Shown piece by piece: positions 1,772 through 40,440 of a stretch of DNA of 52,592 nt. The notes under the pieces were generated by a model. That model had not been told where the DNA came from, searched no databases, and saw nothing but the letters and a program-made list of their open reading frames with translations. Numbering within the stretch: position 1 is the first letter of the stretch; each line of letters begins with the position of its first letter. Both the position numbers and the translations under genes were made by a program. Origin of the DNA: Candidatus Bathyarchaeota archaeon UBA233 (GTDB lineage Archaea; Thermoproteota; Bathyarchaeia; Bathyarchaeales; UBA233); assembly GCA_002507245.1 (NCBI GenBank), contig DAZI01000077.1, positions 1-52,592 of the forward strand. Reading direction: 5' to 3'.

Positions 1772-2202
1772 TGATAATCCTTAGTTTCGGGTTGATAACG
1801 GCTATTTATTTGGGAGTTTCTGTGGCGGGATACTATTACATGCGATATCAACATGCAATTAGACAGTTAGAGGAATATAAGGAGGTTACTAGGTTGGTGA
1901 ATATCTGCATAGACTATGGAAATGGCACTATAAAATGGTATAATGATACATTGATACCCTTGGGTTATGACTTACTTAAAACAACAGAACTCATTGCAGT
2001 TGTGAACTCTACTTATTGGGAGGCTTACCAATCATACAGCGTAGATGCGATTAACGGAGTCTGGAATAATCAATCGAACTACTGGATGTGGTTGAGGTGG
2101 AACAATGAAATAAAAGAGTGGGAATATGTATGGCTGGGAGCTGATCAATACATGCTTTCTGAAGGTGAAACAGTTATGTGGCGCTACGAAAGGACAAGCT
2201 AA
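1756..2202 (+). CDS. Signal-anchored DUF4430-like protein
   Basis: N-terminal hydrophobic anchor. The C-terminal Trp/Tyr-rich block (WMWLRWNNE...GADQYMLSEGETVMWRY) resembles the DUF4430 pattern, which often partners with ECF S-components. Confidence 0.5.
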   Translation: MEKRLVIILSFGLITAIYLGVSVAGYYYMRYQHAIRQLEEYKEVTRLVNICIDYGNGTIKWYNDTLIPLGYDLLKTTELIAVVNSTYWEAYQSYSVDAINGVWNNQSNYWMWLRWNNEIKEWEYVWLGADQYMLSEGETVMWRYERTS

Positions 2203-2244
2203 TAAGAAATCATTTTCTAATGTTGATTATCTTTTTATAATACA

Positions 2245-3180
2245 ATGATTTTTACTCTTCGGAGGGACAGCCACACTGTGAAAATCAGATTTTTCACGGA
2301 GAAAGATGCATCTAATGTGGTTAAACTTCTTAACGAGCATTATAGAGATTCCTATGAATTTATCCCCTACACGGAGGAAGGACTTCTATCTGAAATTCGG
2401 GAAAGGAAGCTTCAAGTGCTTATAGCTGAGGAAGTCGACGCAATTAAGGGATTAATCGCTTACGCTTCAGGACCTTGGGGCGAGGAAATCGAATGGCTTT
2501 CAGTTCAACCGCAATTTAACAGTCGAAAAGTTGAGGATTTGTTGGTGCAAGAGGTTGAAAAACTTGTTAAGGGCGACAAAGTCTTTACAGTAGTTGACGC
2601 AGATAGTCCGGAAATCCAGAAATGGATTCAGAGGGGTTATAAAGTAGAAGGGGGGCTTTATCACATGACCGCTGAATTGGATGTTCCGAAGCCGCTACCG
2701 CTGGTTCCAGAGAAAGCCATACTCCGAAGTTTACGTAGAGGCGAAGAACAAGAAATGGTTGATCTAGTGAACAAAGCCTATGGATGGGAGCGTTTACGCC
2801 TTGAGAGTATTAAAAGATGGAAAGAACGAGATCCCGCTTTTAGCGAAGAGTGGATTCACGTGGCAGAATTTGACGGAAAACTTGTCTCTGTAGTGGTTTC
2901 TCGGATAAATCGAGAGTATAACGAGTATTTTGGTGGCAAACGAGGTTATCTTGGACCAGCAGCAACATTACCCGAATATCAACATAGGGGCTTCGCTTCA
3001 GCGCTTACATGTAAAGCAATGAATTTCCTCTTGGATAAAGGAATGAACTCTGTAGCGCTTTATACTTCAGAAACTAATAAGGCTTCAGTTCCTCTTCTAA
3101 AGAAGTTAGGTTTCAAGATATCGCATCACTGGAAGTTCTTGTACAAATATTTCTCTGAGAAGAGCAAAACTAACTCTTAA
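2245..3180 (+). CDS. Tandem GNAT-family N-acetyltransferase (two acetyltransferase domains)
   Basis: 311 aa. The second half carries a typical GNAT motif A region (LPEYQHRGFASALTCKAM...LLKKLGFK). The first half has EWLSVQPQFNSRKVEDLL. Confidence 0.7.
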   Translation: MIFTLRRDSHTVKIRFFTEKDASNVVKLLNEHYRDSYEFIPYTEEGLLSEIRERKLQVLIAEEVDAIKGLIAYASGPWGEEIEWLSVQPQFNSRKVEDLLVQEVEKLVKGDKVFTVVDADSPEIQKWIQRGYKVEGGLYHMTAELDVPKPLPLVPEKAILRSLRRGEEQEMVDLVNKAYGWERLRLESIKRWKERDPAFSEEWIHVAEFDGKLVSVVVSRINREYNEYFGGKRGYLGPAATLPEYQHRGFASALTCKAMNFLLDKGMNSVALYTSETNKASVPLLKKLGFKISHHWKFLYKYFSEKSKTNS

Positions 3181-3181
3181 C

Positions 3182-3880
3182 TTATAGGAAACTAAGTAAT
3201 TCCCAAAAGCTATGAATTTTTTCCACTTCGCAATTCGTAACGTTGTTACGTCTACTAATTAACAATGCCCTTATTCCGGCATTTCTTGCACCTTCATAGT
3301 CATTTTCCAGAGAATCACCAACAAACAGAGTTTCTTTCGGCGATACTTGTAGCAGTTTCAAAGTCTTCAGAAAGACTTCTCTATTTGGCTTCATACACAT
3401 AAAAGTGTCAACACCTACCTCGACGTCGAAAAAGCCTTCAAGATTAACTTTTTTCATCACATGTTCTATATCGCTTTCCAATCCATTGGAAACTATACCC
3501 AATTTTAGTTTTCTAGCCTTCAACTCATGCAACACTGGTAAAACATCCGGATAAAGTTCAACATCGGCGTAATCCCACCATTCACGATCAATAGTTTTGG
3601 CTAAATCCAAAGCTTGATTCTTGTCCATGCCCAGATCTTTTAAAAGAATTAAATTGAACATTACCCAGAAGTCCTTTCCTACATCTGCAAGCCGACTAAT
3701 ATCTAGCTGTCTACTCGCTTTCTGATGCGCCTTAGCTATTCTATCTAAAGAATAACTCATTCCGTAGGCTTGAAGAATCTTGTCATAAATTTTTATTACC
3801 TCTTCTAGCGTAGCAGCTGTTATTAACGTTCCGCCCATATCAAATAACACAGCTTTTATCGTCAAGACCGAGTTCTCCAT
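3182..3880 (-). CDS. HAD-superfamily hydrolase (phosphatase/dehalogenase-like)
   Basis: Motif I is FDMGGTL (DxG variant of DxD). Motif II is GIVSNG. Motif III/IV is KP...VGDSLENDYEGARNAG. Confidence 0.8.
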   Translation of the reverse strand: MENSVLTIKAVLFDMGGTLITAATLEEVIKIYDKILQAYGMSYSLDRIAKAHQKASRQLDISRLADVGKDFWVMFNLILLKDLGMDKNQALDLAKTIDREWWDYADVELYPDVLPVLHELKARKLKLGIVSNGLESDIEHVMKKVNLEGFFDVEVGVDTFMCMKPNREVFLKTLKLLQVSPKETLFVGDSLENDYEGARNAGIRALLISRRNNVTNCEVEKIHSFWELLSFL

Positions 3881-3944: not shown

Positions 3945-4463
3945 ATGCCTATGAAAAAGCTTGAATCCTTTTCAAAAAAGTTGCATGCAGAGAAGGATCC
4001 TGCACATGATTTTTCTCACATCAAAAGAATCGTAAAGATCTGCAAATGGCTTGCAACATCTGAAACGGATGTTGAACTTCTTGTGTGCGCTGCTTACTGT
4101 CACGGAGCATTAGACAAGGAAGAAGAAATTAGAGTATTCTTACGAAAGCTAAACTTTGAGGGTAATCGTATTGAAAACATCCTTTCTACTGCTAAGAATT
4201 CAACTTCTGCTTCGAAATGCCGAACCATGGAAGAGAAAGTATTGTATGACGCCAATGTCCTAGATGCTTTGGGTGCGATAGGCATAGTGCGAGCGTTTAT
4301 CAAAGGAGGATATGAAAAGCAAACCATACAACAGACAATAGAAACTATGAAAAGGAACATGAAGAGAAAGGTTTTTACACGAAAAGCGAAAGCCATTGCA
4401 AGGGAAAGAAAGCTCTTCATGGAAAAGTTCTTGAAACGTTTAGAAATGGAGTTAAGGTCTTAG
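3945..4463 (+). CDS. HD-domain-like metal-dependent phosphohydrolase
   Basis: 172 aa with an N-terminal HDFSHIKRI and later CHGALD/YDANVLDALGAIG, typical of small HD-domain proteins. Confidence 0.5.
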   Translation: MPMKKLESFSKKLHAEKDPAHDFSHIKRIVKICKWLATSETDVELLVCAAYCHGALDKEEEIRVFLRKLNFEGNRIENILSTAKNSTSASKCRTMEEKVLYDANVLDALGAIGIVRAFIKGGYEKQTIQQTIETMKRNMKRKVFTRKAKAIARERKLFMEKFLKRLEMELRS

Positions 4464-4538
4464 TTGAGTTGTCCGTTCATTTCGGGACATAAAATCATTA
4501 ATAAAAGGTATTGCTAAACTGGAAAAGGGAATGTTAAC

Positions 4539-5456
4539 ATGTTAGTCACAAACAAGGAAATTCTGCTTTCAGCGATGAGGCAAAGCTACGCGGTTGGCGC
4601 CTTTAACATTAGCAATTTGGAAACGTTCCAAGCTATAGTTGAAGCTGCAAAAGAAGAACATTCACCGTTAATAATTGCGGTTACTCCAAGCACTATAAAA
4701 TACGCGGGACTAAACAACATTGTTTCGCTTGTTATGACTACAGCCAAACAAATGCCTCTACCAGTTTCATTACATTTAGATCATGGCAAGGATGTAGAAA
4801 CGATTAAAATGTGTATTAAAGCAGGTTTCACCTCTGTTATGATAGATGGCTCTCATCTTAAATTTGAGGAAAACATAGCCTTAACTAAAAAAGTTGTAGA
4901 ATTAGCCCAAGAAAAAGGAATTTCGGTTGAAGCCGAACTTGGACGTTTAGCTGGAATCGAAGAAACCACTGTTGAAGAGCGAGAGGCTTTCTTAACTGAT
5001 CCGGAAGCTGCAAGAGAATTTGTTGATCGAACAGAGGTGGACGCGTTAGCTGTTGCTATTGGAACTTCGCATGGAGCCTACAAGTTCAAGGGTGAACCAA
5101 AACTTGACTTTGAAAGATTAAAAGCCATAAAAGAAAAACTGGGTATTCCACTGGTTTTGCATGGAGCTTCAAGTGTACCTCAAGACATAATTGAAAAAGC
5201 TAACAGATATGGAGCCAAGCTTAAAGGAGCCAGGGGAGTACCAGAAGAACACATTAGAAAAGCAATTTCTTTAGGTATTTCAAAAATTAACATCGACACT
5301 GATCTTCGCCTAGCGTTTACGGCAACTGTAAGAGAAACATTGGCGATTTCACCGGAAATTTTCGATCCTAGGAAAATTTTAAGTCCAGCCAGACAAGCTA
5401 TGAAAGAAGTTGTGAAAGCAAAAATGCGGTTGTTTGGGAGTTCTCATAAAGCCTAA
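4539..5456 (+). CDS. fba: Class II (metal-dependent) fructose/tagatose-1,6-bisphosphate aldolase
   Basis: AVGAFNISN, LHLDHG, AIGTSHGAYKF, VLHGASSVP and ISKINIDTDLR are the conserved class II FBA/GatY-family blocks. Confidence 0.88.
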   Translation: MLVTNKEILLSAMRQSYAVGAFNISNLETFQAIVEAAKEEHSPLIIAVTPSTIKYAGLNNIVSLVMTTAKQMPLPVSLHLDHGKDVETIKMCIKAGFTSVMIDGSHLKFEENIALTKKVVELAQEKGISVEAELGRLAGIEETTVEEREAFLTDPEAAREFVDRTEVDALAVAIGTSHGAYKFKGEPKLDFERLKAIKEKLGIPLVLHGASSVPQDIIEKANRYGAKLKGARGVPEEHIRKAISLGISKINIDTDLRLAFTATVRETLAISPEIFDPRKILSPARQAMKEVVKAKMRLFGSSHKA

Positions 5457-7743: not shown

Positions 7744-9480
7744 ATGCGAACTATTTTCTCTAAACCGGGAGAGGAAAGATTGAGCAAAAGAAGGATACTG
7801 CTCTTAGCCTTTGCTACTATTTTGATTTTCGCCTTCGTTGCGCCCATTACGATGGCGCTTCCAACCTCTTTGCCTTCCATGGAAGTCAAAGTTAAAGGAA
7901 ACTTCCCTGAAGGACAATGGAGCCGAGTAATAATTCACCTACGCGAAAAAGCAACAATAGAAAAAGCTAAAGTTTTAGATCAGCTCCCCTACTTCAAACT
8001 TGGATACGCTGTAGATGGAGAACCCTACATTTTTAACATAGGAAACTTTCATGCGATCGCTGGAGAAATATACGTACCCTCAGGTATTGAAACACTTGTA
8101 TCAAGTTATTATCAAATGGTTTCAGCAATCGTTAAAGAACAGGAATTTCACGTTACACTTGACACAAGCGTAGACTACATAAAGGCCAAACAAGTTTGGA
8201 ATTTCGGATATAAAGGCGCTGGTGAAGTAATAGCCATAATTGACACAGGAATAGATGCAAACCACATGGACTTAGATGAGGGAAAAGTCATAGCTTGGAA
8301 AGACTGGATAAACAACAATCCATCACCTTATGATGATCACGGACATGGAACACACTGTGCTTCTACGGCTGCCGGAACAGGAGAAGCTTCCGGCGGGCTA
8401 TACACAGGAGTAGCTCCCGAAGCTTCATTAATAGGCTTAAAAGTTCTAAACTCAGCTGGAAGCGGAACTGAGGCTGACATCATCGCAGCCGTACAATGGT
8501 GTGTAGACAACAAAGACGTTTACGGAATCGATGTTATCAGCATGAGTTTAGGAGCATCCCGTGACGATGATGGCACATGCAGCCTATGTCAAGCCGTAGA
8601 TAATGCTTGGGATGCGGGATTATTCGTTGCAGTAGCCGCTGGAAACGATGGGCCGGGGAGAAACACCATTGGATGTCCAGGAAACGCGTGGAAGGTAATG
8701 ACCGTGGGCGCCATAGATGACTCCACTGGCTCTATAGCTTCCTTCAGCAGCCGTGGACCCACGATAGACACGCGGCTTGATCCTGACATATGTGCTCCAG
8801 GAGTAAGCATAACAGCAGCCAAAGCTGGAACAACTAATCAATACACAACAATGTCCGGAACTTCCATGGCTACTCCACATATTGCCGGGGCCGCTGCATT
8901 ATTAATTGATGCAAAGGGCGGAAGTGTTTCACCAAACCTTGTTAGAGGCGCCATGATAAGCACAGCGGTTGATCAGGGCGATGCTGGCCCGGACATAGTT
9001 TATGGTTGGGGAATCATAGATGTACAAGCCGCCTACAATTGGATACTTAACCCGCCCAGCGCTGATGTTAAAGCGGCAAAAATCAGCTTCGACGCTGAAG
9101 TTTCCACAGGTGGACAAACAGATGTTTCTGTTCAGCTTTGGAGCGTTGGAACTGGTTCCGCCTACAGTGTTTACATTGATGATACCCTTCCAAGCGGTTT
9201 CACCCTTGTAAGTGGACAACTCGATGTTTCAGTAGGCACCATGGCTTCAGGAGGCATATTCAAAAACACATACCGAATAGAGGCTCCAAGCAGCACCGGA
9301 ACATATTACCTTGGAAAAGCCTATATTACTTGGAGTGGTGGTGAAACCTACACCAACGACGTTAGACTTGATGTAACAAGCGGAGGAGGAAGCTGTCTCG
9401 GAACAATTCTGCTAGCAGTTGTACCTGCGGTAACATTTCTGACGGTAGAAGTAAGGAAAAGAAGGCGAAAAAGGAAATAG
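7744..9480 (+). CDS. Secreted subtilisin-like (S8) serine protease with C-terminal Ig-like domain and Gly-Cys/TM/poly-basic tail
   Basis: N-terminal signal peptide. Catalytic triad contexts are IDTGID (Asp), HGHGTHCA (His) and GTSMATPH (Ser). A CARDB/DUF11-like domain follows. The C-terminus is TSGGGSCLGTILLAVVPAVTFLTVEVRKRRRKRK. Confidence 0.9.
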   Translation: MRTIFSKPGEERLSKRRILLLAFATILIFAFVAPITMALPTSLPSMEVKVKGNFPEGQWSRVIIHLREKATIEKAKVLDQLPYFKLGYAVDGEPYIFNIGNFHAIAGEIYVPSGIETLVSSYYQMVSAIVKEQEFHVTLDTSVDYIKAKQVWNFGYKGAGEVIAIIDTGIDANHMDLDEGKVIAWKDWINNNPSPYDDHGHGTHCASTAAGTGEASGGLYTGVAPEASLIGLKVLNSAGSGTEADIIAAVQWCVDNKDVYGIDVISMSLGASRDDDGTCSLCQAVDNAWDAGLFVAVAAGNDGPGRNTIGCPGNAWKVMTVGAIDDSTGSIASFSSRGPTIDTRLDPDICAPGVSITAAKAGTTNQYTTMSGTSMATPHIAGAAALLIDAKGGSVSPNLVRGAMISTAVDQGDAGPDIVYGWGIIDVQAAYNWILNPPSADVKAAKISFDAEVSTGGQTDVSVQLWSVGTGSAYSVYIDDTLPSGFTLVSGQLDVSVGTMASGGIFKNTYRIEAPSSTGTYYLGKAYITWSGGETYTNDVRLDVTSGGGSCLGTILLAVVPAVTFLTVEVRKRRRKRK

Positions 9481-9529
9481 TAGCATAACAGACCTCCAAT
9501 CCCCCATTTTTCCCATCTTCCCTTTTAGT

Positions 9530-10771
9530 TTAGAACGGAATTGTGTAAATATTTCCAGTGTATACAAGTAAATCCCAAAGAGAATGAGTTGTAGCTGGAG
9601 CCACCAAACTACGACTTCGAACAAAGAGATAGTTCAAAATTATACTTCCAGAAAAATTGATTAGAGAAAACTCGGTGATTGCCGGCAAGACTTTTAATTT
9701 CCAGTTTAAAACTACCTGAAAAAATGTTGCTTGATGAGACAAAGCGAAGAAAAGAGAACAGAGAAAAACTGAAAGATGCATATCCAAGCCTTTCTCTAAA
9801 GTTGGAAACAATATTCCACGGAAAAGGAGTTCTTCCGAAATTACAACAACAATTATCACAGGCATCCAATGCCAATTTCCTCTAACAAGCATTTCCGATA
9901 AATTATAGTGACGAAAGACAACATAATAAACTACAAAAAGCGAATAAAGGATTATTGCCCATAGAATTCCATTAACCAAATTCTTTCGCCAATTATTCGT
10001 TACTAAGCCCATCTCCTTCAACGATAAATCATTAACCATCCAAGCCAAGAAACCGAGACTTAAGAAGGTTAAGACAAATCCTAATATAGTCAAAGCTGAA
10101 TCGTGGATGAATAGATACTGTAAGGCGCTAAAGGAAAAAGTGAAAACGGTTACTTTAAAAAGAGAAGAAGCTATAACAGTGTTAAAGTTTTTATGCGTAG
10201 TAATTTTCAATAAAAGCTTCGTAGTAAAAGCAATTATTGCCGCAAGTAACGTTACCAACCCAACTAGGAAGAGAAGACTTAGAGTGAAAACTATTGAGAC
10301 GTCTGTGGAATAAAAAGGCAAAGCAAGAATAAAGGAAGCGATTAAAGCTAGCCAAACAATGGGATAAAATCTCAAAGCTTTATGGAATAGGGTTACCTCC
10401 AGTTCTTGGGCCAGTTGGTAACCGAAATTGAAAATTTCGAAACCAAAAAGAATCCCAAAGGAAAAGTAAATCACTTTAACACCAGGGATCAACCACATGT
10501 TTAAAGCCCTTTCGATATTAAGGATGATAAAATAGACGATCATAGGTATAGTAAACAGGGATGCCCACCGTATAGAATAAATCTTCTTAGAAAACGTTTC
10601 TAGACGGGGTAAAACTGAAGCGCCAAGTAGAACTCCTAGATATATGCCTAAACAGCCCGAACACACAGGTAGCCAATGCCCACCGATTTCAAAAGTAGCA
10701 TAGTCCTCTTGAAAACAAAGTAAGGAGCCTAAAAAATTAGTAAAATCTATTATAATTGAAACGAGATTCAT
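9530..10771 (-). CDS. DUF2085-CPBP fusion: polytopic membrane protein with intact CAAX-protease-family (CPBP) intramembrane protease domain
   Basis: The N-terminus LCFQEDYATFEIGGHWLPVCSGCLGIYLG matches the DUF2085 Cys pattern. The C-terminal third has CPBP motifs EELLFRG, FFALSH and HSLWD. About 10 or more TM helices. Confidence 0.75.
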   Translation of the reverse strand: MNLVSIIIDFTNFLGSLLCFQEDYATFEIGGHWLPVCSGCLGIYLGVLLGASVLPRLETFSKKIYSIRWASLFTIPMIVYFIILNIERALNMWLIPGVKVIYFSFGILFGFEIFNFGYQLAQELEVTLFHKALRFYPIVWLALIASFILALPFYSTDVSIVFTLSLLFLVGLVTLLAAIIAFTTKLLLKITTHKNFNTVIASSLFKVTVFTFSFSALQYLFIHDSALTILGFVLTFLSLGFLAWMVNDLSLKEMGLVTNNWRKNLVNGILWAIILYSLFVVYYVVFRHYNLSEMLVRGNWHWMPVIIVVVISEELLFRGILFPTLEKGLDMHLSVFLCSLFFALSHQATFFQVVLNWKLKVLPAITEFSLINFSGSIILNYLFVRSRSLVAPATTHSLWDLLVYTGNIYTIPF

Positions 10772-10810: not shown

Positions 10811-11716
10811 TTGACTGTTAAACTTTGCTGTGGAAAAGACTTGAAGCTGTTAACCAAAATTTGGGCTATCATCTACATGGGGAGACCCTTTCTCTGGATT
10901 TTTTCTATAGGAACTGCCTTATGTGGGGCAATAATCGCCTTAAAAGGGGTGCCGCCGTTCGCTATTTTCTTGGCAATGGTTTTGGGAATTGGCCCTTGCA
11001 CCACCACAGCAATAAACGTTTTGAACGGGGTTTTTGATATTGAAACTGACAGAATTAACAAACCTGACCGCCCGCTTATTCAAGGAAAACTCAGCAAAAA
11101 TGAGGCGATCTTTGCTTCAGCTTTCCTTTACACTGTTTCACTCGTTGCAGCGTTTTTCTTCGGATTCTGGCCTTTTACCTTTATGAGTTTAGGGGTTATC
11201 CTTTCAATAGCCTATTCCGTTCCTCCCATTAGGCTTAAGAATTTAGGACTTGCCTCCAACATAGCATTGGCTGTTGGCTATTCGGGTATAACGTTCATTG
11301 GTGGATGGAGCCTTTTCAAAAGCCCCTTTGAGATTACACCAGAGGCATTAACTATTCTGTTTTTAATAGTGATTCAAGTAACTGGCGCTAACGTTGTAAA
11401 AGACTTTGTCGATTATGAAGGAGACTTAAACATTGGAATAAGAACTATTCCTGTGCGTTTCGGGATTAAAAAATCAGTCTTCATAATCCTTCCATTAATG
11501 GTAGGTGTTTATCTCACTATTCCGGTAATAGTATTTCTCGGAGTGTTCAAGCTACATTACCTATTCTTGAGCGCCTTTAGTCTATGGGGAATCTTTATAC
11601 TTAAAAAATTATATACGGCTAATCCCTCCAAAAGGTTAAGGAAGAAAATGTTTGTTCACGCCTTTTTCATGTCCCTTCTCACGGAAATTGCCTTTGCAGC
11701 TGCTTATCTCCTATAA
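10811..11716 (+). CDS. UbiA-family prenyltransferase (DGGGP-synthase-like)
   Basis: First Asp-rich motif NGVFDIETDRINKPDRPL and second motif KDFVDYEGDLNIGIRTIPV, with about 8 TM helices. The start is uncertain (TTG at 10811 vs ATG at 10877). Confidence 0.8.
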   Translation: MTVKLCCGKDLKLLTKIWAIIYMGRPFLWIFSIGTALCGAIIALKGVPPFAIFLAMVLGIGPCTTTAINVLNGVFDIETDRINKPDRPLIQGKLSKNEAIFASAFLYTVSLVAAFFFGFWPFTFMSLGVILSIAYSVPPIRLKNLGLASNIALAVGYSGITFIGGWSLFKSPFEITPEALTILFLIVIQVTGANVVKDFVDYEGDLNIGIRTIPVRFGIKKSVFIILPLMVGVYLTIPVIVFLGVFKLHYLFLSAFSLWGIFILKKLYTANPSKRLRKKMFVHAFFMSLLTEIAFAAAYLL

Positions 11717-11725
11717 ATGTATTTA

Positions 11726-12769
11726 TCACCACTGCCTAGAAACTATAAGTTCCGCCATTTGTCCCAATATCTGTTTTGCTCTAGTCTGAGGTAAAGTTTC
11801 CAGCTTTTTTTTAGCCTCTGAAGCATAATTCCTAGCTAACCCATAAGCATAATCAATTGAACCACATTCCTTCAAAATCTCGATAATTTCCTCTACCTCA
11901 ACTTTTTCAGCCTCTCTATTTCCCAAAGTTCGAAGAATTGCTCTTTTCTGGCTTTCTGAGCACGTATTAAGACAGTGGGCAATTATGACGGTTATCTTCC
12001 CGTTTCGTATATCAGAACCTATTTCCTTTCCTAAAGTTTGAGACAGACTTGTAAGCCCTAAAATGTCGTCAGCTAGCTGGTAGGCCACTCCTATCGAATC
12101 CCCATATTCAGACAAAGCTTCTCTTTCGGTTTGAGCCGCATTCCCAATGATTGCTCCTGCTTCCAGGGATACTTTTATAAAGGCCCCTGTCTTTTTCCTG
12201 GCAACTTCTAAGCATTCTTCAATCGACGCAATTTTTCTTTGGCTTATTATTAAATCCAAGTATTCCCCTTCTATCGCTTTAAGCCCAGCCTTGACAAATA
12301 AGTTCAATATTTCGATTACTTGTTGTTCCTTTCCTTTTAACAGGTTCGCTAAGCTAGTTACTGCCTCCACGCTTTTTAGAAATAAGAAGTCAGATGCAAG
12401 AATGGCATTGTGAATGCCCCAAACTATATGAACTGGTTTTTTCCCACGTCGTGTTTCTGCATTATCAAAAATGTCATCTTGAATCAACCCCATGGTGTGA
12501 GCAAGTTCCACGGCTGCTGAAACGGATAACGCGTTTTTTATGTTTCCGTTTACTGCTTCACATGCAAGTAATAACAGGAGGGGACGAATACGTTTTCCTC
12601 CAGCGTTTAGAGTATATGCGCACATTTTAGCTAATTCGCAATCATCAGAAATGAAACGGTTAATCTCATTTTCAACAATTAATAAATATTCAGAAACATC
12701 TTGATAGAAGCTATTAAATAGTCTCGTCAGCGAATTTTTCGACATTTCTCTTCGACAGAATAATCCCAC
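11726..12769 (-). CDS. idsA: Polyprenyl (geranylgeranyl) diphosphate synthase
   Basis: FARM is LIQDDIFD and SARM is QLADDILG, plus GGKRIRP. The true start may be the internal Met (MSKNS...). Confidence 0.88.
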   Translation of the reverse strand: MGLFCRREMSKNSLTRLFNSFYQDVSEYLLIVENEINRFISDDCELAKMCAYTLNAGGKRIRPLLLLLACEAVNGNIKNALSVSAAVELAHTMGLIQDDIFDNAETRRGKKPVHIVWGIHNAILASDFLFLKSVEAVTSLANLLKGKEQQVIEILNLFVKAGLKAIEGEYLDLIISQRKIASIEECLEVARKKTGAFIKVSLEAGAIIGNAAQTEREALSEYGDSIGVAYQLADDILGLTSLSQTLGKEIGSDIRNGKITVIIAHCLNTCSESQKRAILRTLGNREAEKVEVEEIIEILKECGSIDYAYGLARNYASEAKKKLETLPQTRAKQILGQMAELIVSRQW

Positions 12770-34971: not shown

Positions 34972-35871
34972 ATGATAAGAGAATTAGAAGGCTATATTCA
35001 ACAAAACAAAGAAAACTTGGCGAAACTACCCACAGTTTCTTGGTATGGCGGACTTTATCGATACTTGTTAGATACAAAAAAAGCAGATGCCCAGCAACTT
35101 CAAGGGATAGTGGAAAGAATCAAAGGTTACCAGAAGAACGATGGAGGCTACCAAGTGGAAACAAAGGGAACAACCAGCTCAGTCGTGGAAACAGCCGTAG
35201 TCATAGACTTGCTCCTAGATGTTGGAGGCTCTTGTGACTCTGACATGGTGTCGCAGGCTGTTGAGTTTCTTCTCACACAACAGCGAGAAGACGGGGGATT
35301 TGCTGAAAACATCAGCGTGAAACATCCGATTGAGTGGGATGACAAGTATATTTACGAAAAAAGGGTTTCAACACCGCATGTGACTGCTTGGGTATTGAAG
35401 GCACTTTTAAAAACAGGTTTGTCAAAAGAGAATCCGGCAGTCGCCAAGGCTTTACGATATCTTGCAGTTTCTCAAAAGAAGGACGGCGGCTGGTCGCATT
35501 TCAAAAGCGAAGTCAAAAGTTCTTTATACCTAACAGCATTGATAGTAATCGCACTCGGTGAGTTTAAAGAGTTCAAGCATGCAGTAGATGTTGATACATT
35601 GAAAAACTATTTTATTAGCCACCAAAAGGAAAACGGAAGTATAGGCGACTGTCTAGATGCGAGTCTTTTGGTTGCCGAAGCTTGGCATAGCCTTGGAGTG
35701 AACAAAGAAAATTCTAACATGATTCGATTGTTAAAGTGGATAATAAAGCAACAGGATTCTGATGGTTCTTTCATAGATAAAGACTGTGGTTGGCCTGATA
35801 CACTAGAAAATCGTGTTACCTGTTCAATGAACACGATGAGAGTTTTATATAAAACCGGGTTACATAGGTGA
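34972..35871 (+). CDS. Prenyltransferase/squalene-oxidase-repeat protein (single alpha/alpha-toroid domain), copy 1
   Basis: Five spaced repeats: QKNDGGY, QREDGGF, QKKDGGW, QKENGSI and QQDSDGSF. Each is followed by a helix ending in xxAL/xxLG. No signal peptide. Confidence 0.7.
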   Translation: MIRELEGYIQQNKENLAKLPTVSWYGGLYRYLLDTKKADAQQLQGIVERIKGYQKNDGGYQVETKGTTSSVVETAVVIDLLLDVGGSCDSDMVSQAVEFLLTQQREDGGFAENISVKHPIEWDDKYIYEKRVSTPHVTAWVLKALLKTGLSKENPAVAKALRYLAVSQKKDGGWSHFKSEVKSSLYLTALIVIALGEFKEFKHAVDVDTLKNYFISHQKENGSIGDCLDASLLVAEAWHSLGVNKENSNMIRLLKWIIKQQDSDGSFIDKDCGWPDTLENRVTCSMNTMRVLYKTGLHR

Positions 35872-35877
35872 AAAACT

Positions 35878-36765
35878 ATGAAATTAAGAGTAGACCCTGT
35901 GCCTGTTTTTTGGAGGAAAGCCAGTTGTTGGAGAAAACTGCGATTACTAAGATATTTTGGTAACATGGAAACGTTTATTGCGCAAAAATACTTGAAGGAG
36001 ATGAATAATCTTCGACGTGAAGACGGTGGTTTTTCCAGAACTTCTGACGAACAATCTTCAGTTACTGTAACAGCTGAAGCGATAATGAACTTGATATGTT
36101 CAGGCGTAAGCCCAAACTCGCCATCTGTCCAAAAGGCCTTAAACTTTCTCTTAAGTCTGCAAAAAGAGAATGGAAGCTGGCGTGAAAATCCCAAGCTCTC
36201 AAAGGATAGGATACCTTTCTGGTCAAGCTGTGAGAAAGGCGTTCCAATACTTACTGCGGATTGTATAGAAGCATTTGTGGAGGCTGGATACCGAAATGAT
36301 GAACGAATAATAAAGGCAGTAGAATGGCTGAAACAAATGCAATCTCCAGATGGAATGTGGTTAAGCCTTGAAGATACCGATCCGAACGACACTGAACCAG
36401 ATTCCACGCAAAGAGCAATATCAGCACTGATAAAATTTGGTTTGCCAAAAGATTCTCACATAATAAAAAATGCCTGTGTTGCGTTAGAGAAATTCATCCT
36501 AAGAGAAGCTGCAGAATGGGCTAAAACCCATCCGCCAGTTTGGCCTTGGATCGCCTCTTTGGACGGATTAGTAGCCGCAGGTTATACTGTTGAAAATAAG
36601 GCCGTAAATTATGCGTTAAAGAACATAGTGGAACAGCAACAAGAAGATGGAAGCTGGCCTAACAACTATGAGCTAAGAGTAGTCCCCACGTTAATTAAGC
36701 TTGATATAATCCAAAAGGAACAAGCTTCGGAGACAATCAAAGTGGTTGATTCAGAACAAGCTTGA
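35878..36765 (+). CDS. Prenyltransferase/squalene-oxidase-repeat protein (single alpha/alpha-toroid domain), copy 2
   Basis: Repeats RREDGGF, QKENGSW, QSPDGMW and QQEDGSW. GGTGA lies 8 nt upstream of the ATG and 6 nt after the copy-1 stop (operon). An alternative start is MET at 35965. No signal peptide. Confidence 0.7.
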   Translation: MKLRVDPVPVFWRKASCWRKLRLLRYFGNMETFIAQKYLKEMNNLRREDGGFSRTSDEQSSVTVTAEAIMNLICSGVSPNSPSVQKALNFLLSLQKENGSWRENPKLSKDRIPFWSSCEKGVPILTADCIEAFVEAGYRNDERIIKAVEWLKQMQSPDGMWLSLEDTDPNDTEPDSTQRAISALIKFGLPKDSHIIKNACVALEKFILREAAEWAKTHPPVWPWIASLDGLVAAGYTVENKAVNYALKNIVEQQQEDGSWPNNYELRVVPTLIKLDIIQKEQASETIKVVDSEQA

Positions 36766-36791: not shown

Positions 36792-36820
36792 ATTCTTGAT
36801 TAGTTATGTTTTTCAAGAAT
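36792..36820 (+). promoter_or_regulatory. 8-bp perfect inverted repeat ATTCTTGA-N13-TCAAGAAT upstream of the giant surface-protein gene
   Basis: attcttga (36792-36799) and tcaagaat (36813-36820) lie in the AT-rich 150-nt spacer between 36765 and the ATG at 36916. This could be an operator or an RNA hairpin. Confidence 0.3.
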
Positions 36821-36915
36821 ATGTAAACCTTAGTTTTATTATGATCTCTAAAGTTAATATAAAGTTGACAATAAATTTTTTTATTATAATAAATAGAAAA
36901 AACTTTCTGATAAAA

Positions 36916-39900
36916 ATGTTAAGAAGAATTTTGTTTACAATAGTTAACGTTTACATATTGTGTTTTCTGATTTTTACTCCATGGATGGAATTAAAAACTT
37001 CATCTGAGAATAGCATAATGATTGAAGGAGATTGGATAATCAATGATACTGTATGGATGTTCAATGAAATTATTATTGTGGGTGGAAGTGTAATAATCCT
37101 AGATGGGGGTAAATTATTTTTAAGAAATTCAACTTTGTTTATAGGAGTTTCAGAAGCAGCACTTGTACCCAAAAATCTGACAGTAAAGACTAATGGACTT
37201 TTAAGCGTTGTTGACTCCACAATAACGTCCAATTATCGTGGTAGATACTGGATCTATGCCGAAGAACAATCTGCTGTTGAAATCCTATATTCTAAAATCT
37301 GTAATGCAGGTCGAGCCCCTGTCAGTAGTCCAATGTACCTATTTATTAGGCCACCTTATACAAATGACAGATCAAAATTCGGTCACGGTATTGAACTAGA
37401 AACTCCCGTTTGGATTAAGGAAACTACATTTGTTAATGTAAGCAGTATAAGATTTTATGCGTCAGGTAATATTGTTGAAAATAATACTATAATTAATTTA
37501 AGGCATGAAGGATTTGCATTCATGGAATCTTCAACAAATAACATAGTAAAGTACAATAGGATATTAAATGCTAGCGTTGATTGGGGGAATCCTTTAGGTC
37601 AAAACTTTGACAAAGAAACATTTGGCATAAGATTTTATCCACCAGAGAATATAAACCTTTCAGACCAGTATGATGAAGTTTATGGCAACTTTATTCAAAA
37701 TGTTACCTTCGGAATATTTATTTCGACTGTTCCGCCATGGACTTCTCGATCTAACTTGGTAATACATGATAATTATGTTAAAAATACCATAGCTTGTTTA
37801 GTAGGGGCGTTAAATAATTCGAAAATTTATAACGAAAGGTACGAGAGGTTCTGGGCCTGGGGAATGCATATTCGTGTATCTAATACGTTAATTGAAAATA
37901 ATACCATTGTGAATGCAACATTGCAGATTCCTTACATCTGGAATGACACCGACAATTATACGCCTATAAACTACTGGAAGCATTTTTGGGAATTTACTCG
38001 TAGACATAGGGTTAGTCCGGGAGAAGGCACTGATATGTTCGCTATTTCAACCCCATTTCAACGCAAACTTTGGAGCATTGGTAGCCAATTGTTGTTGTTC
38101 TATTCCAATGGTACACATATGGTGTATACCTATACTTATTTCGATGAATATGGTATCCTACGTTGGAGTGAGCCAGCATGTATTAGGGAAACACTAGAGG
38201 GGGGCAGTTTCTCCGTGTGGTTAAGTCCTTCGTACTATGTCCATTATGTGTATTCCAGTGGATTATGGAGCGACCCTATCTATTATCGAAGGGGTAGGTT
38301 CACAGGTAACACGATTAACTGGGATACTGAAACAATAGCTGTGCCAGGAAATGAAAACAAAAAGTATATAAATCCATTTATATCAGTCGATGACAATGGT
38401 TATCCGTGGATAGGATATACTGAGGTAGTATCCCCTCCAGTTGACACAACGGGTATTCCATACGTGACAAAATCATCAACAAATGACGGAACATGGCAAA
38501 CAACACCAGGATTCCCGTTTAAACTTTCGAGTAGTCTCGGAACATGGGCTGTTCAAGTTCACCCGTTTTCGTTGAACGAGGTATATGCCGTTTATGCTCG
38601 TGGATTTGACACAGTGAAGGGTAGACTTTGGAATGGTTCTGTATGGTTGTATGAGGAAGAGGTTTCGTCAAGTAAAATTATTGATGGAACCTACCATAGT
38701 GTTGTTTGCGTAAATAACGTGATACATCTAGCTTTTCTGAGTTCTAACAATAGCATTGTATATCTCAATCGAACAGAAAATGGTTGGAGCTCCGAAGAAC
38801 TTATTCAAACAACAGTTTCATCCACATCTGCTCCAGTTTTAGGCTTTGATGATTACGCATCCGAACTCTACTGCTTCTGGATAGGTTCTCCAGAAACAAA
38901 CAAGATTTACTACAAAAAATACAGGGAGGGAAAATGGACCCCCTTCCCAATAAGATATTCTGACGGATTTAAAGTAGATGAATTTCCAATAACTAGAAAT
39001 GACTTGATTGCTTGTCCGATAAAAGGTAACATTGCCCTCACTTTCACAAAAAATGAGGGGCAGAGATATAAGCTTGATGTTTTTGTATCTTTTTCTACTG
39101 GTTGGAGCTTGATAGTATCTCAAGTTTACTATCGGTTTATGTTCAGAGTTCGACACGGAATACTTCTAACCGAAGGAGGCGATAATATTTCAATATGTAA
39201 AAATTCTATTAGATACATTCCCACGCATGGAGGGGGTATAGGCATGGATGTGGGGGGAACCCTAACTAATGTCATGATTTTTAACAATTCCGTTTATCAC
39301 ATTGCTGATGAAAACTATGCATATCCTTGCCCCACTACTGTACCCTCCTTATATAAAAGCCAGGAACCTGGTGGCGCTATCGAACTTGAACATGTTGATA
39401 ACATAACAATAAAGATGAATTTAATGATAAATGTAGCTCAAGGAATTACAACAACTTTTGCAGATTCAATAGGATTTCGTGGGCGAATATTTATTCAGAA
39501 CAATTCAATAATCAACGCTTCGTCATATGCCATCCGATTCGACGACTTCTGGGAAGCACCTTCTACAGAAAATTACACGGTTTCAATTAAAGGAAATGAA
39601 ATAACTAATGCACAAGTAGCTATAACAGTATCTAACTACAATAACATTTTAAATAAAACGATAATTTCAACAAATAACATCATTAATTGTGAAAAAGCTC
39701 TCTGGTTTGGCCGCAATGGGCCCCCTGTTCGTAATTGTACAGTTATTGAGAATAACATTGTCAATTGCACATATATCGTCGATGTAAATAATAAAGCTTC
39801 ACCTTACGACATTCTATTCTACCATAACAACTTTGTCAATTATACATACATCAATACACGAAGTATGGAAGGTCTTTACTGGAATTTAACCTACCCAATC

Positions 39901-40440
39901 GCGGGAAATTACTGGAGCGATTATACGGGAGAGGATAATTATTGGGGGCCTGACCAAAACTTGCCTGGCCCAGACGGTATAGGCGACGCCCCATACGTCA
40001 TAGATTCAAATAATATCGATTATTATCCGTTGATGTACCCATGGACACCTCAAGATATAATTGCCATTACAAATATGTGGTTCTCAGAGCCACCTCACTA
40101 CGTCGGAGAGCCACTAGGCATCTGCGTAGAGGTTAAAAACCAAGGGGGCTACAACATAACCTTCTCTGTAAACATTAATTACACAACGAAAATTATGTCT
40201 TTCCCAGCCGAAGGGTTAATTGGAACACAAAATATAACATTAATTCCTGGAGAGTCAAGAACAATATTGTTCATTTGGACGCCTCAATTACCTGGCACGT
40301 TTAACATAATTGCATACACAAGTGAAATCCCCTGTGACATAACCCCTGAAAACAACATGTTCAAAAAATACATTATCATTTATAGTACTCCACCGCATCC
40401 AACCCCCAGTGGCGGAGGAGGACGGTGTTACCCGATCTAA
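36916..40440 (+). CDS. Giant secreted surface protein: right-handed beta-helix (NosD/PbH1-like) repeats - beta-propeller-like middle - second beta-helix - CARDB domain, ending SGGGGRCYPI
   Basis: The start is taken at MLRRILFTIVNVYILCFLIF (signal/anchor) inside ORF 36796..40440. Repeated N-x-I/V-x-N-N beta-helix rungs. The NosD-type closing block is NYWSDYTG..GPDGIGDAPYVIDSNNIDYYPLMYPW. The CARDB-like block is VEVKNQGGYNITFSVNINY...PGESRTILFIWTP. About 33 N-x-S/T sequons were counted by eye. Confidence 0.8.
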   Translation: MLRRILFTIVNVYILCFLIFTPWMELKTSSENSIMIEGDWIINDTVWMFNEIIIVGGSVIILDGGKLFLRNSTLFIGVSEAALVPKNLTVKTNGLLSVVDSTITSNYRGRYWIYAEEQSAVEILYSKICNAGRAPVSSPMYLFIRPPYTNDRSKFGHGIELETPVWIKETTFVNVSSIRFYASGNIVENNTIINLRHEGFAFMESSTNNIVKYNRILNASVDWGNPLGQNFDKETFGIRFYPPENINLSDQYDEVYGNFIQNVTFGIFISTVPPWTSRSNLVIHDNYVKNTIACLVGALNNSKIYNERYERFWAWGMHIRVSNTLIENNTIVNATLQIPYIWNDTDNYTPINYWKHFWEFTRRHRVSPGEGTDMFAISTPFQRKLWSIGSQLLLFYSNGTHMVYTYTYFDEYGILRWSEPACIRETLEGGSFSVWLSPSYYVHYVYSSGLWSDPIYYRRGRFTGNTINWDTETIAVPGNENKKYINPFISVDDNGYPWIGYTEVVSPPVDTTGIPYVTKSSTNDGTWQTTPGFPFKLSSSLGTWAVQVHPFSLNEVYAVYARGFDTVKGRLWNGSVWLYEEEVSSSKIIDGTYHSVVCVNNVIHLAFLSSNNSIVYLNRTENGWSSEELIQTTVSSTSAPVLGFDDYASELYCFWIGSPETNKIYYKKYREGKWTPFPIRYSDGFKVDEFPITRNDLIACPIKGNIALTFTKNEGQRYKLDVFVSFSTGWSLIVSQVYYRFMFRVRHGILLTEGGDNISICKNSIRYIPTHGGGIGMDVGGTLTNVMIFNNSVYHIADENYAYPCPTTVPSLYKSQEPGGAIELEHVDNITIKMNLMINVAQGITTTFADSIGFRGRIFIQNNSIINASSYAIRFDDFWEAPSTENYTVSIKGNEITNAQVAITVSNYNNILNKTIISTNNIINCEKALWFGRNGPPVRNCTVIENNIVNCTYIVDVNNKASPYDILFYHNNFVNYTYINTRSMEGLYWNLTYPIAGNYWSDYTGEDNYWGPDQNLPGPDGIGDAPYVIDSNNIDYYPLMYPWTPQDIIAITNMWFSEPPHYVGEPLGICVEVKNQGGYNITFSVNINYTTKIMSFPAEGLIGTQNITLIPGESRTILFIWTPQLPGTFNIIAYTSEIPCDITPENNMFKKYIIIYSTPPHPTPSGGGGRCYPI

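Follow-up and report, generated by a model that had tools for sequence, protein, structure and literature searches.

The stretch of DNA analyzed here (the window, 52,592 nucleotides of contig DAZI01000077.1 from the Candidatus Bathyarchaeota archaeon UBA233 assembly GCA_002507245.1) encodes an S8-family subtilase with a tripartite C-terminal tail. In convergent orientation, 49 nucleotides away (9481-9529), lies the gene of a membrane protein in which a DUF2085-like module is fused to a CPBP glutamic protease domain. The relationship of the tail to this fusion protein, and to the UbiA-family prenyltransferase encoded on the other side of the fusion gene, is the subject of this analysis, and the features concerned are collected in Table 1. 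Pfam recognizes a Peptidase_S8 domain in the subtilase (217.6 bits, residues 158-423), with the catalytic motifs DTGID at residues 167-171, HGTHC at 201-205 and GTSMATPH at 372-379, and weak TRAP_beta/DUF11 beta-sandwich matches at residues 441-535; the N-terminus has a signal-peptide-like h-region. The protein ends in DVTS-GGGSC551-LGTILLAVVPAVTFLTV-EVRKRRRKRK (nucleotides 9382-9477), where the transmembrane (TM) segment has a mean Kyte-Doolittle hydropathy of 2.28 in the best 17-residue window of the tail and eight of the last 12 residues are Lys or Arg. A short signature containing Cys, a TM segment and an Arg/Lys cluster at the extreme C-terminus are the hallmarks of the known Cys-containing tripartite signals (MYXO-, CGP-, JDVT- and Synerg-CTERM), in which the Cys directly abuts the TM segment, and the window tail has all of these features. 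The original prediction for this locus had described a subtilase ending in a Gly-rich, Cys-containing segment, a TM helix and a basic stretch, a convergent 413-residue DUF2085-CPBP fusion with three CPBP motifs 49 nucleotides from it, and UbiA and geranylgeranyl diphosphate (GGPP) synthase genes flanking the CPBP gene. The open reading frames (ORFs) of the subtilase and the fusion are as it gave them, and Pfam and the motif positions agree with it on these and the flanking genes. In public annotation, the fusion and S8 proteins are nameless or bear generic names only.

Table 1. Positions of the features discussed, in nucleotides of the window; aa, amino acids.
Feature	Position	Strand	Description
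S8 subtilase, putative cargo	7744..9480	+	578 aa; signal peptide, pro-region, S8 domain, beta-sandwich, tail
Tail signature G547-G-G-S-C551-L-G-T554	9382..9405	+	Cys551 codon 9394-9396
Hydrophobic TM segment LGTILLAVVPAVTFLTV	9397..9447	+	residues 552-568, from hydropathy
Basic cluster EVRKRRRKRK	9448..9477	+	residues 569-578, predicted cytoplasmic, from sequence
DUF2085-like/CPBP fusion, candidate sorting protease	9530..10771	-	413 aa, polytopic membrane protein
N-terminal DUF2085-like module	10187..10771	-	about residues 1-195, 6 predicted TM helices; C19, C37, C40 at predicted outer face
C-terminal CPBP (Rce1-like) glutamic intramembrane protease domain	9533..10186	-	E313/E314/R318, H346, H396/D400
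UbiA-family prenyltransferase, candidate lipid-supplying component	10811..11716	+	divergent from the fusion gene; Pfam 141.9 bits
Short-chain isoprenyl diphosphate (GGPP-type) synthase, context gene	11726..12769	-	Pfam polyprenyl_synt 212.8 bits
Giant beta-helix/CARDB protein	36796..40440		ends ...PSGGGGRCYPI, C-terminus at about 40396-40437

The two halves of the fusion protein are each recognized by Pfam, the N-terminal half as DUF2085 (PF09858; residues 19-113, 29.7 bits, cut-off 25) and the C-terminal half as Rce1-like/CPBP (PF02517; residues 300-402, 55.1 bits, cut-off 22.4). All three CPBP motifs are intact (E313-E314-LLF-R318-G, FFALS-H346 and H396-SLW-D400), and they are kept in every fusion of the same domain order and in the stand-alone CPBP proteins of Asgard archaea described below. 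The N-terminal module belongs to a divergent subgroup of DUF2085, with C19-F-Q and P-V-C37-S-G-C40-L-G-I-Y instead of the canonical C-H-Q ... C-x-R-C-x-G-I-Y; the related proteins P0008 and P0012 and the fusion encoded on contig L063 fall slightly under the DUF2085 cut-off of Pfam. Variants of the module in which the Cys residues are replaced by Thr or Ser, Asn and Asp are found as stand-alone proteins (P0014 and P0045) and in fused form (P0027). An AlphaFold2 model of the window fusion based on a 147-sequence alignment has a mean predicted local distance difference test score (pLDDT) of 91.6 and a predicted template-modelling score of 0.75, and it forms a single body; an initial model from four sequences (pLDDT 59.5) was discarded. 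Foldseek matches the C-terminal half of the model to the Rce1 structure MmRce1 (4CAD) with a probability of 1.00 and a template-modelling score of 0.52 normalized to the target, and also to SpdC (6U0O). The N-terminal module has neither a fold counterpart found by Foldseek nor a sequence relative in the PDB. A DsbB/VKOR-like assignment of this module is unsupported, both the Foldseek and the PDB sequence searches matching the CPBP half only. Crude hydropathy and the positive-inside rule predict that the N-terminus is inside, that the loop with C19, C37 and C40 faces outward, and that the helices bearing E313/E314 and H346 have these residues in their outer halves. The predicted depth of E313 and H346 in the membrane would be the level of Cys551 in a substrate helix.

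Loci orthologous to the window locus are present on a hydrothermal-vent contig (L001), in the metagenome-assembled genome (MAG) Candidatus Bathyarchaeota GMC4_bin_42_sub (L008) and on a short Logan contig (L162), where the tails read GGGGTC-LGTILL..., SGGGGC-LGTALI... and SGGGGC-LGTIAL..., respectively. Because these orthologs alone are insufficient to prove a sorting signal, we scanned metagenome contigs with a degenerate DNA pattern for GGGxC[LF]GTx[LF]h, which gave at least 120 matches on at least 119 stretches. In seven of the 120 matches listed, a long ORF closes with a tripartite tail, the match lying 24-34 codons before the stop and continuing into a hydrophobic run and a K/R cluster; most of the others are out-of-frame noise. 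The carriers of these seven, among the matches listed, are three S8 proteases, two SBP_bac_5 proteins, one LVIVD beta-propeller protein and one 208-residue protein of unknown family. Two further tails, encoded beside the matches on the same contigs, were not selected by the pattern: VGAC-LGTLFI on a 211-residue protein (L058, 268-903) and NGGSC-LGTFLL on an M14 carboxypeptidase (L063). The sequence C-L-G-T is invariant in 11 of 11 aligned tails, two of them outside pattern selection, and all carriers that are full-length begin with a signal peptide. The carriers are encoded on contigs of 38-49% GC. With a hidden Markov model (HMM) of the tail, no true tail scores under 31 bits and no random pattern match over 22.6 bits, and the same DNA pattern applied to viral contigs as a negative control gave six matches, none of which is a tail. 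Unrelated carriers may share a contig, as is the case for an S8 protease and the M14 carboxypeptidase on L063 and for an LVIVD protein and two unknowns on L058. The three tail genes of L058 (SMTZ1_10011740; 268-903, 2128-3228 and 4290-4916) lie within 5.6 kb and encode two small secreted proteins of unknown family and the LVIVD propeller, which suggests a cargo island.

We found no description of a G-G-x-C-L-G-T tail in the literature. None of the NCBIfam CTERM models matches the full subtilase, and an hmmscan search with the tails alone at E<=10 returned only PExPT-CTERM, at 12.7-13.5 bits against a cut-off of 40 and over the helix and basic part. The models for CGP-CTERM (TIGR04288), MYXO-CTERM, PGF-CTERM, PEF-CTERM and GlyGly-CTERM gave no match to the tail. 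A two-sequence tail alignment searched against an index of 5.8 billion proteins gave 20 word-sharing candidates, none with E<=10; this probably reflects a limit of length and composition, and we do not use it as evidence.

The fusion protein is extremely rare. When 1.84 billion representative proteins were searched exhaustively with a profile, the fusion family amounted to 14 clusters at E<=1e-10, seven of which reach E<=1e-30; beyond those clusters the matches are generic CPBP or DUF2085 proteins. Among the findings that would speak against it, the original prediction had named the absence of the tail from all other proteins of the genome and a wide distribution of the DUF2085-CPBP architecture in genomes lacking such tails. 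At the level of contigs, neither is what we see: S8, M14, SBP_bac_5 and LVIVD proteins and small proteins of unknown family carry the tail, and the architecture amounts to the seven clusters at the stricter threshold. Among genomes sampled at one for each GTDB species, only the Bathyarchaeota-labelled MAG encodes the whole fusion. Asgard MAGs (Borrarchaeota and Promethearchaeota) have the nearest relatives of the halves as separate genes for proteins of about 230 residues, and in Borrarchaeum weybense (JAHQJS010000006.1; L003/L006) the two lie 232 kb apart on one contig. Across these and the other Asgard loci (L004, L005, L007 and L009), the DUF2085-like module of about 230 residues and the CPBP domain of 232 residues are encoded by different genes at different loci; the Asgard CPBP half is annotated as a generic CPBP endopeptidase and is also found in a Sifarchaeia MAG. 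The opposite domain order, with CPBP first and then the DUF2085-like module, is seen in P0012 and in the fusion of contig L063 (1483-2712). Both of these reversed fusions have Lys in place of the motif-2 His (LFGLYK versus FFALSH), with motifs 1 and 3 intact.

Contig L063, which is 7 kb long, was retrieved via the tail pattern only. Its genes, all on one strand, encode a tail-bearing S8 protease, the M14 carboxypeptidase, which likewise has the tail, a UbiA protein, the reversed CPBP-DUF2085 fusion and another S8 protease; the UbiA and fusion genes overlap by 4 nucleotides (ATGA) and are translationally coupled. Because this contig was chosen blind to a family of about 14 clusters among 1.84 billion proteins, chance is not a credible explanation, and two deeply diverged lineages, unlike even in domain order, show linkage of tail genes to the CPBP/DUF2085 pair. 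In the window lineage the arrangement is kept in four genomes, with UbiA divergent from the fusion gene and the S8-tail gene convergent with it, while identity across these loci falls to 33% for the fusion and stands at 67% for the S8 protein. Altogether, the fusion gene adjoins tail genes at the window locus, L001, L008, L162 and L063.

The UbiA gene adjoins the fusion gene in every fusion-bearing contig. It is likely that the window UbiA starts at the ATG at 10877 (M23) and not at the listed TTG, since the orthologs are 278-291 residues long. A separate physical link is provided by the 576-residue protein P0027, in which a Cys-less DUF2085-like module (..LPFNSGDLGMYMG..) is fused to a UbiA domain (Pfam 121 bits, residues 288-544). 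Compared with the window and L063 UbiAs, this UbiA domain has 27-28% identity, as much as those two share with each other. Although the original prediction allowed that the UbiA context might be coincidental, this is probably not the case given the adjacency in every fusion contig, the 4-nucleotide overlap and the P0027 fusion, and UbiA is probably part of the system. Both Asp-rich motifs are present in the window and L063 UbiAs. The two proteins fall under all NCBIfam equivalog cut-offs, with ChlG-like, PRK12884 and digeranylgeranylglyceryl phosphate (DGGGP) synthase models at a similar level; the scores are 98.3 bits for PRK12882 (cut-off 296) and 83.3 bits for PRK12883 (cut-off 353). The NCBIfam equivalog cut-off for DGGGP synthase is likewise not reached, but the models are narrow, and the enzyme may be either a dedicated paralog or a divergent DGGGP synthase; the PDB matches are ChlG (73.7 bits) and MjDGGGPS (72.7 bits). 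The GGPP synthase scores 281 bits with IdsA and 253 bits with GGPP_syn, both under the NCBIfam cut-off; it is adjacent in the window lineage only and may be ordinary lipid context.

We consider it fairly probable that the tail is a C-terminal sorting signal of the Cys type, not described before and served by its own CPBP protease, resembling the myxosortase systems and probably linked to UbiA, in which cleavage and lipidation are proposed by analogy. The subtilase would be a Sec-exported surface protein whose last approximately 34 residues form the signal, comprising a Gly-rich spacer, G-G-x-C-L-G-T opening a helix of about 17-20 residues, and a Lys/Arg cluster. After export, the tail would keep the protein membrane-bound, Cys551 lying on the outer side, and the Cys551 thiol would be modified with lipid. 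The CPBP domain would cut at or just after the Cys (C|LGT), in the manner of a myxosortase or Rce1, and the helix and basic tail would be removed, so that the mature protease stayed bound to the cell surface by its lipid anchor. More speculatively, the DUF2085-like module might dock or modify the Cys, and UbiA, together with the GGPP synthase, might make or transfer an isoprenoid lipid.

A close parallel among archaea is the CGP-CTERM/archaeomyxosortase MrtA pairing predicted in Thermococcales (Haft, 10.1101/2023.06.07.544157). Both have an archaeal tripartite tail with an invariant Cys abutting the TM segment, a basic cluster, secreted proteins of about 500-600 residues and a proposed CPBP enzyme. 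However, the window signature is G-G-x-C-L-G-T and not C-G-P, without a match to TIGR04288; the window enzyme does not match NF040590, has a fused or partnered DUF2085-like module and is linked to UbiA; and the host is Bathyarchaeota-labelled or Asgard and not Thermococcales. In Myxococcus xanthus, cleavage of MYXO-CTERM proteins by MrtX is Cys-dependent and has been reproduced in Escherichia coli (PMC11980579). The tripartite layout, the required signature Cys, the removal of the TM segment and basic tail by a CPBP protease and the proposed lipidation are the points of likeness. In contrast to the system proposed here, MrtX is bacterial and needs a type II secretion system and an outer membrane, neither of which is present here, and the N-terminal extension of the window enzyme is an independent module that can be encoded separately.

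There is also a likeness to CaaX processing by Rce1, in the CPBP fold, in a Cys that precedes small or aliphatic residues (C-L-G-T compared with C-a-a-X) and in the adjacency of UbiA and GGPP synthase genes. Rce1 cuts after a prenylated Cys. The CaaX box forms the very end of proteins in the cytosol, and a soluble alpha/beta enzyme prenylates it. The window Cys, in contrast, is followed by a TM helix and is predicted to lie outside the cytoplasm, and the associated prenyltransferase, UbiA, is an integral membrane enzyme. We know of no protein substrate for UbiA enzymes of this kind. In the PGF-CTERM/ArtA system of Haloferax volcanii, an archaeal tripartite tail is removed and an isoprenoid-derived lipid anchor is found in its place; ArtA, however, is a Cys-protease of the exosortase family and not a CPBP protein, and the PGF signature has no Cys. 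Lipid-synthesis genes (PssA/PssD homologs) are functionally tied to that sortase. The lipobox of lipoproteins (Lgt/Lsp, and archaeal AliA/AliB; PMC12462473) likewise combines a cleavable hydrophobic segment with an invariant Cys at its membrane boundary, thiol lipidation preceding cleavage, although it is N-terminal and its helix has the opposite orientation. DUF2085 proteins are not the lipoprotein lipidation enzymes AliA/AliB, which are Lgt-like (arCOG02177/02178), and that candidate identity was rejected.

Several observations weigh against a sorting signal with a dedicated protease. In about 61 kb of the window organism there is a single tail, that of the S8 protein; neither the window nor an 8-kb extension on one side contains a second tail-bearing ORF. 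The co-occurrence of tail and enzyme is evidence at the level of contigs. In the window lineage, the S8 and fusion genes are convergent and so are not cotranscribed, and the four loci of this lineage amount to roughly one observation because the whole region is syntenic. The split genes of Asgard archaea have no tail gene and no UbiA gene within 10 kb, N-terminal modules without the Cys residues exist, and the protease activity of the reversed fusions is uncertain because of the replacement of the motif-2 His by Lys. Cleavage and lipidation are drawn by analogy with MrtX and Rce1. The window CPBP domain falls far under the cut-off of every Mrt model (MrtS, MrtX, MrtC, MrtP and MrtA), the window fusion scoring 22.7 bits with MrtS (cut-off 130) and 19.2 bits with Mrt_core NF040914 (cut-off 100), with no match to MrtA, and the L063 fusion scoring 35.1 and 30.4 bits with MrtS and Mrt_core, respectively. 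We rejected these weak matches as a sign of kinship since generic CPBP proteins used as controls give equal ones, and the comparison with myxosortases in the original prediction does not extend to membership in that class by the curated cut-offs. Finally, UbiA could be the divergent DGGGP synthase of this lineage, and its Asp-rich loops are rich in Lys and Arg and predicted to be cytoplasmic, whereas Cys551 would be extracytoplasmic.

The last of these points bears directly on a bolder scheme, an extracytoplasmic CaaX-like machine in which UbiA makes an isoprenoid or transfers it onto the tail Cys, the DUF2085-like module docks the Cys or transfers the lipid, and the CPBP domain cuts after the lipidated Cys. 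We regard this as unlikely. Direct prenylation of an exported Cys by UbiA is topologically awkward because the Asp-rich loops are predicted to be cytoplasmic, and synthesis of a lipid donor is favored. If true, the scheme would provide the first protein-directed role of a UbiA enzyme and the first function of DUF2085, and would identify the missing lipidation step of Cys-type systems.

Another explanation, which we judge to be improbable, is that the tail is a stop-transfer anchor kept on the mature proteins, with C-L-G-T a preference of this lineage for helix starts or packing, and that the CPBP/DUF2085 and UbiA proteins have an unrelated job. Many homologous archaeal surface proteins do end in a TM helix and a basic tail without Cys, and the single tail in about 61 kb of the window genome, the convergent orientation of the S8 gene and the fusion gene, whose surroundings are syntenic in general, and the inferred nature of tail processing are all compatible with a simple anchor. 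However, an invariant four-residue Cys motif at the helix start, across unrelated families and contigs of 38-49% GC, is not expected of a generic anchor, and it is very unlikely that a 7-kb contig picked by its tail would hold by chance a member of a family of about 14 clusters among 1.84 billion proteins.

There is a similarly small chance that UbiA, the DUF2085-like module and the CPBP domain together form an isoprenoid-lipid or quinone module, or a DsbB/VKOR-like thiol module with a prenylated cofactor, that helps the neighboring secreted hydrolases to mature or act while their tails remain uncut. UbiA is tied to the fusion more tightly than the cargo genes are, as is apparent from the 4-nucleotide overlap on L063 and the P0027 fusion; in the N-terminal module, one TM helix has a C-x-x-C at its outer end; and the Asgard halves have no cargo genes nearby. 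The strict conservation of the CPBP motifs in the forward fusions and the Asgard halves argues instead for real proteolysis, the Cys-less variants P0014, P0027 and P0045 speak against a redox C-x-x-C being obligatory, and no sequence relative in the PDB supports a DsbB/VKOR assignment. It is very unlikely that the CPBP protein, instead of being a general sorting enzyme, serves the adjacent subtilases specifically, as a partner for Abi-type self-protection or for regulation in the manner of CPBP immunity proteins or the pseudo-protease SpdC. In favor of such a role, subtilases adjoin the fusion in both lineages, the structural match SpdC works together with a hydrolase, and the L063-type protein has no motif-2 His. 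Against it, what the neighbors share is the tail and not the S8 domain, since the M14 carboxypeptidase has the tail, and so do binding proteins and propellers, for which no protease partner is needed.

The favored proposal, a Cys-type sorting signal with its own CPBP protease, agrees in part with the original prediction, whose central idea was an unannotated archaeal Cys signal with a fused CPBP enzyme. The recurrence of the tail, the rarity of the fusion and the gene content of L063 speak for that idea, whereas myxosortase membership was not sustained, and neither was the second example that had been put forward, the giant surface protein. The SGGG[GS]xC string noted at the C-terminus of that protein is real, but the ends of its homologs indicate a separate motif without a TM helix: P0154 ends in GGGGGKMPYMD, P0203 in GGGGGRVPYMD and P0227 in GGGGKMPCMN, and the Cys is not conserved. 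No close orthologs of the giant protein, in which a full tail was sought, were found. The homologs have a recurrent motif at the extreme C-terminus, G4-5-[KR]-x-P-x-x-x without a TM helix, which is possibly another unrecognized C-terminal signal. Other kinds of ends are also seen: eight homologs of window positions 38896-40437 (P0160, P0162, P0174, P0198, P0200, P0211, P0234 and P0248) have the tail PVGGYS(I/F)PIQ...TEP..PY.AL.A.LTAIFT..KRKTKRK, and seven other beta-helix homologs (P0165, P0169, P0217, P0226, P0244, P0262 and P0270) have PEF-CTERM-like tails (IPEFPSFLILPLFM...). Directly upstream of the giant protein, window positions 34972-36765 encode two adjacent alpha-alpha-toroid proteins of about 300 residues (SQHop_cyclase_C, TED_complement and Prenyltrans), to which a 530-residue gene product of L001 is related.

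Cys-containing C-terminal signals processed by CPBP proteases have been recognized recently, with one bacterial case proven (MrtX) and one archaeal case predicted (MrtA), and the enzyme that modifies the Cys in those systems is an open question according to the authors of that work (PMC11980579; 10.1101/2023.06.07.544157). The locus described here would add a new signal in uncultured archaea, of which the closest MAG relative is Bathyarchaeota-labelled. Such archaea abound in sediments and are believed to live by degrading extracellular protein. The cargo found, subtilases, a carboxypeptidase and peptide-binding proteins, fits such a protein-degrading life. The system is different from the myxosortase class in its signature, its host lineage, its separable DUF2085-like partner and its link to UbiA. 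To our knowledge DUF2085 has no known function. The putative protease is coupled to DUF2085 and UbiA by fusions in both orders, by an operon overlap and by a separate UbiA fusion, and this coupling yields a short list of candidates for lipidation of the Cys, namely the DUF2085-like module and UbiA. An HMM of the tail would improve the annotation of the surface proteomes of these MAGs.

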